Positions 1,621-31,590 of a DNA stretch of 33,017 nt are shown here, piece by piece. Each line of letters begins with the position of its first letter. Position 1 is the stretch's first letter. Both the position numbers and the translations under genes were made by a program. The notes beneath the pieces are model-generated. The model was not told the origin of the DNA, did not search any database, and worked only from the letters and a program-made list of their open reading frames with translations. Source of the DNA: Candidatus Brocadiaceae bacterium (GTDB lineage Bacteria; Planctomycetota; Brocadiia; Brocadiales; Bathyanammoxibiaceae); contig JASEHG010000002.1 in assembly GCA_030018855.1 (NCBI GenBank), positions 1 to 33,017 on the forward strand, written 5' to 3'.

Positions 1621-2213
1621 CCCTTCTTTTCTTCCTGTCTGGAGGTGGTGGAGGTTTCTGCCTTTTTGGCCTCTGGCTTGGGCGCCTCTTTTACTACCTC
1701 ACCGGCCCCTTCCACCAGCTCAAGGAGGGCTAGAGGTGCGTTATCGCCCAGGCGGTGGCCCACCAGACGTACTTTTCTCTCCTGCCCTTCCATCTTATAG
1801 TTCAATACTGGTATCTGCCCTATCTTGCTCCCGGTCAATATGCCCAGACGGCTGCCGCCCAGTCTCATTATCCTGGTGTATCCCCCGTTCCTGTTGAGGA
1901 ACCTCTCGGCGATACATCCCTTCTCCCGCCACTGGCCCTCGCCTACCAGCTTCTGGGTCAATGCCTTATCCTGGAGCTGGGAGAGTATCTCCCGGTAGTA
2001 GTGGACATAAGCAGGTCTATCCGTCCCTTTTCTGCCAAAGGCCTTTCTGGCAAGGGTGATGAGCCTTTCCACAAAGGGCCTGATTTCCTTTGCCTTGGTA
2101 ACGGTGGTAATTATCCTGCCGTGGGTGAAGAGGGCCTTGGCCAGGTTACGGCGCAGGGCCAACCTGTGGCTGGAGGTCCTTCCGAGGTGTCTCCCTGTCT
2201 TCTGGTGTCTCAT
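1617..2213 (-). CDS. rplQ: 50S ribosomal protein L17 (198 aa, with insertions)
   Basis: MRH...LGRTSSHR, ITTVTKAKE, RNGGYTRI and RLGDNA motifs. Start moved to the ATG at 2213, which forms a TGATG overlap with the rpoA stop. Confidence 0.95.
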   Translation of the reverse strand: MRHQKTGRHLGRTSSHRLALRRNLAKALFTHGRIITTVTKAKEIRPFVERLITLARKAFGRKGTDRPAYVHYYREILSQLQDKALTQKLVGEGQWREKGCIAERFLNRNGGYTRIMRLGGSRLGILTGSKIGQIPVLNYKMEGQERKVRLVGHRLGDNAPLALLELVEGAGEVVKEAPKPEAKKAETSTTSRQEEKKG

Positions 2214-3226
2214 CAGGACTTTCCTCCTACTTCTGCCTTCTTCATCCCCAGAGTCAGTCCCCATTGGGCAAGCTTCTTCTTTATCTCATTGAGGGTGGTC
2301 TTGCCAAAGTTTCTGACCTCCAGGAGTTCTTCCTCCGCCATGCTCGCCAGTTCGTCCACGGTCTTGATATTAGCGGCTTCCAGGCAGTTAGAGGCACGTA
2401 CGGAAAGATCCAATTCTGACACAGGCTTGTTAAGTTTGACCTCCAGTTCTCCGCGGGCCTCCTTCGGTGCATCTACCGCTCCCGGGGCAAGCTTACGGTC
2501 GCCCATCGGCAGTTCCCTGCCTAGCTCAAAGTACTGTACAAAGGGTGTCAGGTGCTTTCTGAGTATCTTTGCCGCCTCTACCAGGGCCATTTCCGGACCT
2601 ATCACGCCGTTGGTCCATATCTCCATTACCAACCTATCGTAATTGGTCCGCCTACCTACCCTGGTATCTTCCGTGTAATACTTTACGTTCCTTACCGGAG
2701 AGAACACCGAATCTATTGCAATGAGGCCTATCTCGGCCTCTTCTGGCTCATTCTCTTCAGCGGTAACATAACCCCTCCCTTTCTTTACCTCCATCTCCGT
2801 AACAAAGCCCTTGTCTTCCGAAAGGGTGACTATATGCTGTTCGGGGTTGATTATCTCTACGGCACCACCCGTGGTGATATCCTTGGCCCTTATCGCTCCT
2901 TTTTTATTGGCTTCTATGCGGATCTTTTGGGGCTGGTCGTCCAGCAGTTTCAGCACCAGGGACTTGATGTTAAGGATAATGTCTGTGGTGTCCTCTACCA
3001 CTCCGGGGATAGTGCTGAACTCATGCTTCACCCCCTTAATCTTTACAGAGGTAACGGCACTACCTTCCAGGCTGTTCAATAGCACCCTTCGTAAGGAATT
3101 ACCGATAGTAACCCCGTAACCCCTCTCAAAAGGCTCAATTATGAACTTGCCGTAGGTATTGCTAAGGGTTTTCTGGTCGACGGTGATGCGAGTCGGCAGT
3201 TCAAAACCCCTCCACCGAATTCGCAT
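2213..3226 (-). CDS. rpoA: RNA polymerase subunit alpha
   Basis: EPFERGYGVTIGNSLRRVLL, HEFSTIPGVVED and CTD LDLSVRASNCL...RNFGKT. Start moved to 3226, where a GGAGGT SD lies upstream. Confidence 0.98.
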   Translation of the reverse strand: MRIRWRGFELPTRITVDQKTLSNTYGKFIIEPFERGYGVTIGNSLRRVLLNSLEGSAVTSVKIKGVKHEFSTIPGVVEDTTDIILNIKSLVLKLLDDQPQKIRIEANKKGAIRAKDITTGGAVEIINPEQHIVTLSEDKGFVTEMEVKKGRGYVTAEENEPEEAEIGLIAIDSVFSPVRNVKYYTEDTRVGRRTNYDRLVMEIWTNGVIGPEMALVEAAKILRKHLTPFVQYFELGRELPMGDRKLAPGAVDAPKEARGELEVKLNKPVSELDLSVRASNCLEAANIKTVDELASMAEEELLEVRNFGKTTLNEIKKKLAQWGLTLGMKKAEVGGKS

Positions 3227-3289
3227 ATACTTACCTCCCCTCTGACTCTTCCAGGCCATCGTGTAGCCTGAAGTCTTTGTCTGTTTTGT

Positions 3290-3919
3290 TTATCTGGAAC
3301 AGAGTTCTACTACTAATTGTTCTTGTACGGGCGAAGAGGTCTCTTCCCTCGTGGGGAAACGGAGTACCTTTGCCTGTGGAGTATCCTTATCAAGTTCTAA
3401 CCATGCCGAATTGAACCGAGTGGCATAGCTCGCCAGGTTGGTCTTTATCAATTCCTGGCTCCTTGGGTGCTGGTAGGGTGTGATGATGTCTCCCACCTTC
3501 ACAAGGTAGGAGGGTACGTCCACCCTCTTTCCACTGACCACTATATGTCCGTGATGAATAAGTTGGCGGGCCTGTTTCCTGGAAGCGGCGTAGCCCAGCA
3601 GATAAGCAACGTTGTCCAACCTCCCTTCCAACAATACCAGGAGGTTCTCCCCGGTATGACCCTTCCGCCTCTCGGCCTCATGGAATAGCCTCAAAAACTG
3701 TCCTTCTAATATCCCATAAAACCTTTTGATCTTCTGTTTCTCCCTGAACTGCACCCCATATTTTGACATCTTCTTCCCACCCCTCCAGTAGTGCATCCCA
3801 GGGGCGGTCTTCCTCTTGGTAACGGGACACTTAGCTGAAAAACAACGGGTACCTTTCAGGTAGAGCTTTATCCCTTCCCTCCTGCACAACCTGCAAGATG
3901 GCCCTAACAGTCTGCTCAT
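3290..3919 (-). CDS. rpsD: 30S ribosomal protein S4 (Zn-type)
   Basis: CRLCRREG-x-KLYLKG-x-RC, REKQK, LEGRLDN and ARQLI-x-HGH. Confidence 0.98.
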   Translation of the reverse strand: MSRLLGPSCRLCRREGIKLYLKGTRCFSAKCPVTKRKTAPGMHYWRGGKKMSKYGVQFREKQKIKRFYGILEGQFLRLFHEAERRKGHTGENLLVLLEGRLDNVAYLLGYAASRKQARQLIHHGHIVVSGKRVDVPSYLVKVGDIITPYQHPRSQELIKTNLASYATRFNSAWLELDKDTPQAKVLRFPTREETSSPVQEQLVVELCSR

Positions 3920-3926
3920 GTATGCC

Positions 3927-4301
3927 CTATACCCTCCTTTTCTTCCTGGGACGACATCCGTTGTGTGGGAGCGGGGTCACGTCTTCAATAGATTTCACGC
4001 TAAGCCCGGCAGACTGGAGGGCTGTGATGGCTGACTCCCTTCCCGAACCTGGCCCTTTTACCCTGACCTCCAACTCCTGGATTCCCATCTTTCTGGCCTT
4101 GTCTGCAACGCTCTCCGCCGCCCGCGTGGCGGCAAAGGGCGTACTCTTCCTGGAGCCTTTAAACCCCACAGTCCCGGCGCTCGCCCAGCACAGAGACTCT
4201 CCATTGAGGTCTGTAATATTGATGTAAGTATTGTTAAAAGTAGCCTTTATATAGGCAATCGCCCTGTTAACATTACGTCTTACCTTTTTAACTTTGGCCA
4301 T
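3927..4301 (-). CDS. rpsK: 30S ribosomal protein S11
   Basis: [28 protein letters not shown] and [12 protein letters not shown]. Confidence 0.99.
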
Positions 4302-5137
4302 TAGTCTTTATCTCCACCGAAGAGCCCTGGTAAAAGTCCCTCTAAGGGAGAATGCACCCCCAGGAGATTGCTCAGTTCTTTATAACCTCCTACGCCCTTC
4401 TTACTGGAACGGGTCTTCCTGGCGGTGAGCACTAAATTCTTAGGGGTCACCGTTGGGGGTACTATCTCGTGCATCTCTACATAATAACCGGCCCCTCGCA
4501 GTACCTGGGCCCTTATGGCCTCCGTCAGGAGGTCCGCAAACCTGTACCTCAGGAGGCCAAACTCTGTCAGCCTCTCCAGGGGCTGAGGGGACCTTATCTG
4601 TCCCCTAATCTGATTCTGACAGCATGGCACCACCATGATATACCTTGCCCCTAACTGGATGCCCCTGGCTATTGCCTCATCAGTTGCCGTATCACAGGCA
4701 TGTAAGGCCAGCACCATGTCCACATTAGTCGGTGGCACAAATTCACACGTCCTACCCTGCCAGAAGGACATATTCTCATAGCCCAAGAAAGCAGCCATGG
4801 TCTTACACCTCTCTATAAGGACTTCAGAGGTGTCCACGCCGTAGAAAGTGGCCTCTAGACCATACATCTCCCTCAAGAGATAGTTAAGGACAAAGGCAAG
4901 GTACGACTTCCCGCAAGAGCAGTCCAGGCACACCAGGCCCTCTTTCAAGAGTTCGGGGGACATCTTGAAGATGTGGCTGGAAAAGCCTACTACCTCCTGG
5001 AATTTCTTGGTCCCGCTCTGGTACAACTGTCCATCGGGACCTGCCCAGCCCAGGGTACGGAGTAGTCTTCCTGCGGAATACAAGAGTTCTTGTATCCTGC
5101 CCTCTTCCGATCCAGTCCTTTCTAGAGCAAATGGCAT
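4301..5137 (-). CDS. Class I SAM-dependent methyltransferase (Methyltransf_32-like)
   Basis: 278 aa with motif [11 protein letters not shown], motif II YGVD, and [18 protein letters not shown] and TPKNL motifs. It fills the rpsM-rpsK gap exactly. Confidence 0.88.
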
Positions 5138-5138
5138 G

Positions 5139-5516
5139 TTAGGCCCTTTCTATCTTCCTTCCAGCTACGGTCTTCTTGCGACCCTTCCTCGTACGGGCAT
5201 TGGTCCGCGTGCGTTGACCTCTGACCGGGAGTCCCACCTTGTGTCTATACCCCCTGTAGCAGCCCAGACTCCTTAAGAGGGCAATATTCTGGGTCTCCTG
5301 CCTGCGGAGGGCGCCTTCGGTCGTGTAATTCTTCTCTATGTAGGAGGCCAGGGTGCTGAGCTGGTCCTCGTGAAGGTCCTTGGCCCGGATGTTCTCGTCA
5401 ATACCTACCGCCTTCAGTATCTTCTGGGAGAGGGCCTTCCCTATCCCATAAATGTACGTAAGGGCTATGACCATCCTCTTGTTGGCTGGTATGTCTACTC
5501 CAGCAATCCTGGGCAT
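5139..5516 (-). CDS. rpsM: 30S ribosomal protein S13
   Basis: [19 protein letters not shown] and YRGYRH-x2[15 protein letters not shown]. Confidence 0.99.
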
Positions 5517-5532
5517 CTAGAGAATACCTCCT

Positions 5533-5646
5533 TTAACCCTGCCTCTGTTTGTGTCTGGGGTTATCGCATATTACCCTAACGACGTTCTTACGCCTTACTA
5601 TCTTACATTTTTCACAAATACGCTTTACCGAGGCCCTTACCTTCAT
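5533..5646 (-). CDS. rpmJ: 50S ribosomal protein L36 (Zn-type)
   Basis: Below the ORF-track cutoff. Manual translation: [37 protein letters not shown]. Confidence 0.98.
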
Positions 5647-5660
5647 CCTATGGACTCCTC

Positions 5661-5879
5661 TTAGACCTGTCTGTAGACAATCCTGCCCCTCTCCAGGTCA
5701 TAAGGCGACATCTCTATGGTCACTTTATCCCCGGGGAGTATCCGTATGAAGTGCATCCTCATCTTTCCGGAGACGTGGGCCAGCACCTGATGGCCGTTAG
5801 GCAGTTCCACCCTGAACATGGCGTTGGGAAGTGCCTCCCTTACCACAGCCTCCACCTTTATAGGTTCCTCCTTGGGCAT
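5661..5879 (-). CDS. infA: Translation initiation factor IF-1
   Basis: [12 protein letters not shown]-x-NGH and [17 protein letters not shown]. Confidence 0.99.
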
Positions 5880-5880
5880 G

Positions 5881-6636
5881 TTACTCTACCGTAAGTACTT
5901 CCACCCCTGTATCGGTAACCACTACCGTGTGCTCAAAATGGGCAGAGAGCTTACGGTCCTTCGTCACCACCGTCCACTTATTCTCCATGACCTCGGTCTC
6001 ACCACTCCCCATGCATATCATGGGTTCTATTGCCAGGGTAGTCCCAGAGAGGAGGACGACGTCGTTGGCCAGGAGTTCTTCGCTTACATAATTAGGTACC
6101 TGGGGTTCCTCATGCATGCACCTACCTATCCCATGCCCGGCATAGTCCTTCACCACCGAATATTCATGGCCCTCTACGTACTCCTGGATGCAACCAGCAA
6201 CCCAGGAGAGCATAACCCCTGGTCTTATACCCTCAATGGCCTTATTGAGGGCCTTCTCGCATACCTCCATCAATCTCCTGGTCGCAGGGGGGACCTTGCC
6301 GATGGGTACCGTTATGGCACCATCAGCCATGTACTTCTTATATTCTACCCCCACGTCTATACTAAGGATATCTCCCTCCCTCAGTCTCCTGGGGCCTGGT
6401 ATCCCATGTACCACCTCTTCGTTTATTGAGGTACACGTACTCCTGGGATAACCCCTATAACCCTTGAATATGGGTGAGCCATGCTTTCCGCGTATATATC
6501 TTTCCATCTCCGTATCTATATAATCTGTAGTTACGTCACAGACAGCCAGTTCCCTGGCCAATCGCAAGGCGCCGGCCACAATCTTTCCTGCCTGTCGCAT
6601 AAGACCGACCTGCCTTGCACTCTTGCATTCTATCAT
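5881..6636 (-). CDS. map: Type I methionine aminopeptidase
   Basis: [16 protein letters not shown]...DGAIT, GHGIG-x2-MHEEP, AIEPM and SAHFEHTV. Confidence 0.98.
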
Positions 6637-31514: not shown

Positions 31515-31590
31515 TGGCAGGTCCGGAGGGACTCGAACCCCCAACACCCGGATTTGGAGTCCGGTGCTCTACCATTAGAGCTACGGACCT
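31515..31590 (-). tRNA. tRNA-Trp (CCA)
   Basis: 76-nt cloverleaf: acceptor AGGTCCG/CGGACCT, anticodon arm CCGGA-CTCCAAA-TCCGG, T-loop TTCGAGT and encoded 3' CCA. Confidence 0.98.

Follow-up and report, generated by a model that had tools for sequence, protein, structure and literature searches.

The genes rpsM and rpsK, which encode the ribosomal proteins S13 and S11, form a pair of neighbours that is kept together with exceptional constancy among bacteria, and the question raised by the locus described here is what a methyltransferase gene is doing between them. The window—a term used for the whole stretch of DNA analysed, i.e. 33,017 nucleotides (nt) of a Candidatus Brocadiaceae bacterium (assembly GCA_030018855.1, contig JASEHG010000002.1, positions 1–33,017 of the forward strand)—carries at 4301–5137, on the reverse strand like all the features given below, a gene starting with ATG and coding for 278 amino acids (aa) of a class I methyltransferase dependent on S-adenosylmethionine (SAM). 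The analysis indicates that this protein is probably a 2′-O-methyltransferase of RNA, either tRNA or rRNA, co-expressed with the ribosomal proteins; the substrate and the chemistry are both judged from its relatives and its genomic setting.

The gene is embedded very tightly. Its start follows the stop codon of rpsM (5139–5516, 125 aa, PF00416 at 106.3 bits, stop TAA at 5141–5139) after a single base, giving the junction TAA-C-ATG (5137–5141), and its stop codon shares one A, at position 4301, with the start codon of rpsK (3927–4301, 124 aa, PF00411 at 154.3 bits), giving the junction TAATG (4299–4303); the sequence reads GGCC TAA C ATG CCA at the end of rpsM and GAC TAATG GCC at the start of rpsK. 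The map of open reading frames and the junction sequences thus agree with the original prediction, made by a model from the letters and the reading frames, that an intact gene is coupled here on both sides. The same holds for its remark that no room is left for a promoter or a terminator, in view of the gaps of 1 and −1 nt and of the signal scans: a simple scan of positions 3200–6000 revealed no promoter-like site, and the one terminator-like site in that region, against 2.3 expected in shuffled sequences, lies inside rpsD, with none between rpsM and rpsK. No sequencing run labelled as RNA was listed for positions 3300–5900; one short contig bridging the rpsM junction comes from a run of uncertain kind (X17, ‘RNA? 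probably DNA’).

A homologue of the methyltransferase occurs in 39 of the 41 genomes of the window's order, Brocadiales, the two genomes without it being 61% and 85% complete, and the gene order IF1-L36-S13-methyltransferase-S11-S4 is preserved in 39/39 loci. Outside the order, in a class sample of 121 genomes, orthologues sharing 42–52% identity were found in the families designated f104 (30/31 genomes) and f107 (1/1), the 20 loci fetched from these two families all exhibiting the order S13-methyltransferase-S11. In three further families of the class (f102, f103 and f105), S13 directly adjoins S11 at a distance of 46–150 nt (5/5 genomes), as it does at 14–309 nt in all 40 loci fetched, out of 68 found, from other Planctomycetota. 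The more distant homologues present elsewhere in the phylum (≤38% identity) are not accompanied, at distances of up to about 4 kb, by any gene for S13, S11, S4, L36 or IF1 (20/20 loci), and when one genome per species is considered, just three of the family's 80 best loci are situated beside ribosomal protein genes, all of them being Brocadiales records. In other phyla the neighbours—an ATP synthase, an ABC transporter, a hydrolase—are uninformative. The insertion is therefore fixed across the order and the families f104 and f107 and absent elsewhere in the class and phylum as sampled; since it occupies the same slot in 59/59 loci, the slot is empty in the other families and the rest of the phylum, and homologues elsewhere are unlinked, the gene was inserted a single time within the class and has never moved since.

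The spacing differs among the families carrying the insert, the start codons behind all these figures having been picked by a heuristic. In the window's own family, the gap between rpsM and the methyltransferase gene is 0–7 nt in 12/12 loci and that between the methyltransferase gene and rpsK from −8 to +10 nt, with the −1 overlap in 10 of the 12, whereas in the other families the two gaps amount to 7–137 and 26–289 nt. The tight coupling is thus a trait of the window's own family and not a general one.

The idea of an assembly misjoin, or of a recent mobile insertion confined to this one genome, can be set aside as virtually impossible. Apart from the 59/59 loci with the same order, which include closed genomes (G016 and G026) and three named GenBank records, a 9583-nt contig from another study (record 25, run X8) spans positions 3300–5900 with 57 differences and no gaps, and contigs of a second study (X7) bridge both the rpsM-methyltransferase and the methyltransferase-rpsK junctions. 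The gene is single-copy in its genome, and its composition (GC content 0.527, and 0.613 at third codon positions) falls within the ranges of the nine flanking genes (0.50–0.55 and 0.56–0.71), so the impression that it does not look foreign was correct. The ratio of nonsynonymous to synonymous substitution rates (dN/dS), 0.10–0.15 against three close orthologues, is similar to those of rpsM and rpsD, i.e. the gene is under purifying selection. The arrangement is genuine, and the possibility reckoned with at the outset, that the insertion belongs to this assembly only, fails.

As a side observation on this stretch of the genome, at least half of the sampled words of positions 3300–5900 were present in 13 listed runs labelled as groundwater or soil metagenomes, which hints at a subsurface habitat of this non-reactor lineage. 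It should also be mentioned that in one orthologue (L012, G012:C126) the frame is interrupted by a TGA where the window protein has R240, which may reflect truncation or a sequencing error, the genome being rated 6% contaminated. Selenocysteine at a conserved cysteine was considered and rejected, as the TGA of G012 falls at the R240 codon and that of G373 upstream of the start.

With regard to the protein itself, the membership in the family PF13679 (Methyltransf_32), anticipated from the motifs, is borne out by the profile search: residues 44–179 cover positions 1–142 of the 143 of the model at 117.7 bits (cut-off 27, E-value 5.1e-34). Methyltransf_31 and Methyltransf_25 are weaker Pfam matches, and no NCBIfam family was found at a useful score. 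Three alignments were used, consisting of 39 (A1), 12 (A2) and 51 (A3) sequences. Seventeen residues are invariant across A1, namely K45, G76, L145, H146, C148, A151, T152, D153, P171, C172, C173, T205, R209, L213, G217, E224 and N234. The motifs noted originally—LDCSCG (residues 71–76), LHACDTATD (145–153) and VPCCQ (170–174)—are all present. Motif I, D72-C-S-C-G76 (4910–4924), is the predicted SAM-binding loop after strand 1; motif IV, L145-H-A-C-D-T-A-T-D153 (4679–4705), at the end of strand 4, is the hallmark of the family and its presumed active site; and motif VI, P171-C-C173 (4619–4627), follows strand 5. The LHAC-x-x-ATD block recurs in A2 and A3, with A147 and T152 falling short of invariance in A3, while PCC is invariant in A1 and A3 and reduced in A2 to the two cysteines, P171 not being invariant there. 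Motif I had been called atypical, but this is a habit of the lineage only: G76 is invariant and C75 present in at least 90% of the 39 sequences, the position of the first glycine being occupied by S, G, N or A.

The AlphaFold2 model built from the 39-row alignment (mean predicted local distance difference test score, pLDDT, of 91; predicted template modelling score of 0.90) has the seven strands in the class I order, preceded by about 40 residues of N-terminal helix, with a long helix (194–215) inserted between strands 5 and 6. The protein is accordingly a class I SAM methyltransferase of PF13679, related to TRM13, its fold being taken from the model and methyl transfer being predicted. The kinship with TRM13 is seen best among the relatives: all 39 aligned sequences match PF13679, 22 of them also match the TRM13 family PF05206 at E ≤ 0.01, and two relatives (L038 with 28.1 bits and L103 with 36.9 bits) pass its cut-off of 26. 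Searching the sequences of the Protein Data Bank with phmmer gave nothing below an E-value of 0.26.

Within PF13679, the window protein represents a short form that lacks the N-terminal extension. When 1.84 billion representatives were scanned in full, 2589 clusters emerged at E ≤ 0.001, identity dropping to ≤44% past a handful of Brocadiia-like clusters, and 102 of the 148 listed clusters P0121–P0268 have a length of 350–420 aa. The extension of such long forms was followed in 20 Planctomycetota copies, where it comprises about 120–130 aa with no Pfam match; in the long-form protein L103 (L103:1677–2852, residues 1–118) it is modelled with pLDDT above 90 and has an alpha/beta fold made up of seven strands and two helices. 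In the FastTree tree of 162 rows, a quick tree without bootstrap, the 17 Brocadiales rows come out as a single clade, nested in a larger one (29 rows, support 98) that contains short forms only. A language-model atlas positions the window protein among PF13679 clusters of 258–301 aa that occur most often in Pseudomonadota, Myxococcota and Bacillota. The two forms are distinct paralogues that are not interchangeable, since both occur in 14/31 genomes of f104, where the long-form paralogue (36–39% identity, frames of 351–889 aa) is located elsewhere in the genome.

Concerning what members of this family do, only one bacterial member with a published function was found. It is TrmS (PA14_68100) of Pseudomonas aeruginosa, which carries PF13679 and is described, in the accessible part of the report, as a tRNA ribose 2′-O-methyltransferase (NAR 2025, PMC12300143). 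Its knock-out loses all 2′-O-methylguanosine (Gm) and about 25% of the 2′-O-methylcytidine (Cm) of tRNA and none of that in rRNA, according to the accessible parts of that paper and its bioRxiv version; a later study (Nat Commun 2026, PMC13547223), likewise partly accessible, maps the sites to position 39 of tRNA-Gln and tRNA-Glu and describes TrmS as occurring ‘with the absence of TrmH’. TRM13, called eukaryote-specific, is listed among the experimentally verified tRNA 2′-O-methyltransferases in the accessible part of PMC12155479. For human METTL25B (RRNAD1), which also carries Methyltransf_32, the available portion of PMC8662637 gives a ‘less clear’ function with an annotation-inferred role in m6A of rRNA, the function of METTL25 being called unknown there.

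The absence of TrmH-type enzymes where TrmS occurs gives interest to the SpoU complement of the present lineage. Neither SpoU_methylase (PF00588) nor RsmI has a match in the window's genome, which is 93% complete, and FtsJ has only a weak partial one. SpoU_methylase is above the cut-off in all 14 control genomes and in 88 of the 101 genomes sampled from the phylum; the 101 include four Brocadiales without it, which makes 88/97 outside the order. The order, by comparison, has an unusually small set of known 2′-O-methyltransferases: SpoU_methylase was detected in 3/41 genomes, none of them among the closed genomes rated 100% complete, and RsmI (TIGR00096) in 0/41. The lack of RsmI was rejected as a lineage-specific signal, only 14/101 genomes of the phylum scoring above the cut-off.

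At the level of the class, SpoU_methylase is retained in 17/113 genomes of the insert-bearing families as compared with 8/8 of the other families. Leaving aside the window's genome, the former comprise f1 (0/8), f4 (0/45), f2 (4/25, all from one genus), f3 (0/1), f5 (0/1), f104 (13/31) and f107 (0/1), and the latter f102 (1/1), f103 (4/4), f105 (2/2) and f106 (1/1). In four examples from f104 the sole remaining SpoU protein is RlmB-like, the outgroup f103 having both an RlmB-like and a TrmH-like one, calls that lie below the equivalog cut-offs except for the RlmB of G019. Because the insert-bearing families keep SpoU unevenly and those without the insert keep it, the insertion preceded a stepwise loss of SpoU. 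The pattern resembles the case of TrmS and TrmH and, in our analysis, leans slightly towards a tRNA target.

Based on the above results, the following course of events may be proposed. The gene would have entered the slot between rpsM and rpsK a single time, in an ancestor of Brocadiales and of a sister group in the class, and been kept since. It would be transcribed with infA-rpmJ-rpsM on one side and rpsK-rpsD-rpoA on the other, with translational coupling, in the window's family, to the S13 gene upstream and the S11 gene downstream, so that the enzyme would be produced whenever ribosomal proteins are. It would transfer the methyl group from SAM to a ribose 2′-hydroxyl in a structured RNA belonging to the translation apparatus, with K45, H146, C148, D153, C172, C173, R209, E224 and N234 presumably disposed around the SAM pocket, and may have taken over from the lost SpoU-type 2′-O-methyltransferases, as TrmS for TrmH in Pseudomonas. 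As to the target, tRNA is a serious though still tentative candidate, and rRNA a possible one to be named with some more reserve. A narrower version dedicates the enzyme to the small subunit: a protein of the Trm13/TrmS type that had lost the usual N-terminal domain, produced in concert with S13 and S11, would act on the assembling 30S particle, either 2′-O-methylating 16S rRNA near these two proteins or methylating one of them, and its arrival would have let the lineage discard SpoU, an enzyme type that is nearly universal otherwise. This version is rather doubtful; were it true, the enzyme would be the first ribosome-directed member of the TRM13/TrmS superfamily.

Several observations speak against a 2′-O-methyltransferase acting on RNA. 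The SpoU pattern is essentially that of one clade, i.e. of one or a few events, and the methyltransferase and SpoU co-occur in three genomes of the order and in the 13 SpoU-bearing genomes of f104; conversely, the SpoU-less Planctomycetota G046 and G049 have no PF13679 homologue, and the phylum is poor in 2′-O-methyltransferases generally. The tie to TrmS is a shared Pfam family, not orthology, and against the TRM13 model PF05206 the window protein reaches 10.7 bits (E-value 0.37), below the cut-off of 26. Most relatives have the N-terminal domain of about 130 aa which is lacking here, and substrate recognition may thus differ. The isoelectric point of the window protein, 6.9, is not basic, the median of the 39 orthologues being 8.75. 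The structural matches obtained with Foldseek and VIA-align are class I methyltransferases only, of every substrate class and tied with one another (template modelling scores of 0.36–0.47 and Z-scores of 13–15 over 150–198 residues); being generic, they are silent on the substrate. Finally, the invariant cysteines of motifs IV and VI recall what we take to be the positions of the catalytic cysteines in the m5C and m5U methyltransferases of RNA.

This last point leads to the alternative of a base methyltransferase, which would act on tRNA or rRNA too, for instance by cysteine-dependent C5 methylation of pyrimidines. The invariant cysteines directly after strand 4 (C148) and strand 5 (C172 and C173) would suit it, as would the m5U methyltransferase RumA among the Foldseek matches, yet RumA matches no better than dozens of others. 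Moreover, in the accessible text on TrmS the knock-out removes Gm and Cm and not base methylation, and TRM13 is a verified 2′-O-methyltransferase in the accessible part of PMC12155479. Base methylation is therefore considered improbable.

The structural ties bear equally on the thought that the gene is a passenger, i.e. a housekeeping gene with a substrate outside translation, such as a small molecule or another protein, for which the operon provides strong constitutive expression as it does for adk, map and secY. The small-molecule methyltransferases TmtA, Coq5, OxaG and UbiG match at the same Z-scores as the RNA enzymes, genes not specific to the ribosome are found in the same operon, and the neighbours of the family elsewhere are unrelated to translation. 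This explanation is nonetheless unlikely, given that the characterised members of the family are tRNA enzymes in the accessible parts of their descriptions, that the insertion has been kept without moving in all the loci across two orders, and that SpoU 2′-O-methyltransferases were lost in the same lineage.

The original prediction had favoured an enzyme modifying the ribosome, with the N-terminus of S11 and the basic tail of S13 among its possible substrates; such a protein might be methylated while the neighbouring gene is being translated. Its premise agrees with Table 1 of a 2011 review (PMC3347575), where, in the accessible part, the enzyme for the N-terminal methylation of S11 in Escherichia coli is entered as ‘Not determined’. 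Class I includes protein methyltransferases, PrmC and an L11 methylase being found at Z 14 among the structural matches that tie with one another, and the class-wide linkage to exactly rpsM and rpsK, with tight coupling to either gene in the window's family, would fit a protein substrate. On the other hand, the gaps outside that family show that tight coupling is not general, no characterised member of PF13679 or TRM13 that was found acts on protein, and the window protein matches neither PrmA nor another protein N-terminal methyltransferase family at E ≤ 1 in Pfam and NCBIfam. The S11 N-termini of the lineage begin with MAK, MGKKK, MSS, MSK, MTNA or MAEK, residue 2 being A, G, S or T, and look alike in 40 Planctomycetota without the methyltransferase gene; no lineage-specific feature was found in the S13 tail either, by comparison with the same 40. 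Nor does the position in the operon alone name a ribosomal substrate, because Adk, Map and SecY share the operon. A complex prediction pairing the methyltransferase and S11 (from alignments A1 and A4), run without controls, scored 0.00 against a mark of 0.32 and counts as evidence neither way. Considering the tRNA-acting relatives, the variable S11 N-termini, the missing PrmA match and the mixed operon, S11 or S13 as the substrate is unsupported, and a ribosomal-protein methyltransferase is quite unlikely. Taken as a whole, the original prediction was right on an intact, embedded, coupled and native gene of Methyltransf_32 that is fixed in its lineage and went too far on the S11 or S13 substrate, on the atypical motif I and on the ‘undescribed system’, the last of these being overstated for one enzyme of a known family.

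As regards the genes around the methyltransferase, infA for IF-1 (5661–5879) and rpmJ for L36 (5533–5646) lie upstream of rpsM, and rpsD for S4 (3290–3919) and rpoA (2213–3259) downstream of rpsK, all in what is presumably one transcription unit as judged from reading frames and Pfam; the genes flanking the methyltransferase that were identified by Pfam code for S13, S11, S4, L36, IF-1, RpoA, L17, Map, Adk and SecY. Among the 11 genes from rplQ to secY checked by Pfam, only the methyltransferase gene is unusual for such a cluster. Judged by the sizes of its reading frames, the whole window (1–33,017) is a run of translation and transcription genes on a single strand, also carrying tuf, tRNA-Trp (31515–31590), rpoB, rpoC, fusA and the S10, spc and alpha operons. 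The frame of rplQ for L17 (1617–2264) is 215 aa long, with the Pfam L17 domain covering only residues 38–139: as listed, the frame begins inside rpoA and shares 52 nt with its end, so that the true start is probably to be sought further in, and the approximately 75 residues beyond the domain suggest a C-terminal extension.

The finding is of interest for several reasons. Two neighbouring genes that bacteria otherwise keep together very constantly are separated by a single gene throughout two orders, which include the anammox bacteria, and the insertion could serve as a marker delimiting a clade within the class. No published description of a methyltransferase gene between rpsM and rpsK was found in titles and abstracts, most subscription journals lying outside the coverage; a paper on the anammox core genome uses rpsM and rpsK as phylogenetic markers (PMC7814187). 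The conserved insertion is thus new to the literature searched, while the enzyme belongs to a known family and does not constitute a new system. In a lineage almost without SpoU and without RsmI, the methyltransferase is a concrete candidate for the remaining ribose methylation of tRNA or rRNA. If confirmed, it would be the second, independent case after TrmS of a PF13679 enzyme occurring where SPOUT enzymes are missing, in a very large family (the 2589 clusters mentioned above) for which a single bacterial member with a published function was found. The question of S11 methylation in E. coli is not solved by it.

Among the known systems compared with the window protein, human METTL25 and METTL25B are eukaryotic and longer, and add no functional information. 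The long-form PF13679 proteins of about 380–400 aa share its catalytic domain and invariant motifs at 33–44% identity, but they have the extra N-terminal alpha/beta domain and are not found near ribosomal genes. PrmA would be the model for a protein substrate, as a class I SAM methyltransferase modifying the N-terminus of a ribosomal protein (L11); it has, however, its own substrate-recognition domain (PMC10293735) and no sequence match to the window protein at E ≤ 1, the structural match of the L11 methylase (Z 14.0) being tied with dozens of others.

TRM13 acts on tRNA ribose and has a related catalytic domain. Eukaryotic Trm13 has N-terminal zinc-finger domains, whereas no zinc-finger family is among the seven Pfam matches of the window protein at E ≤ 1, and about 40 helical residues precede the catalytic domain in the model. 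TrmS has PF13679, a class I Rossmann fold and a domain starting near the N-terminus, all in common with the window protein, and occurs in genomes lacking TrmH-type SpoU enzymes, a situation that recurs in the window's genome and order. It differs in being largely restricted to Pseudomonas and Pseudomonadota according to its authors, in the accessible text, which reports no tie to ribosomal protein genes, whereas the methyltransferase of the window is situated inside a ribosomal operon.

For this last feature the parallel is provided by E. coli, where trmD, encoding a SPOUT methyltransferase forming m1G37 in tRNA, lies between ribosomal protein genes in the operon rpsP-rimM-trmD-rplS. The two cases differ in the operon, the slot and the type of enzyme, trmD being also far more widespread, but in both a methyltransferase gene is embedded among ribosomal protein genes, with which trmD is co-transcribed and the gene described here presumably so, and the present locus, with all its genes on the same strand, gaps of 1 and −1 nt and no promoter-like or terminator-like site between rpsM and rpsK, fits an embedding of the trmD kind. 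Because of this precedent, a position among ribosomal genes need not mean a ribosomal protein as the substrate.

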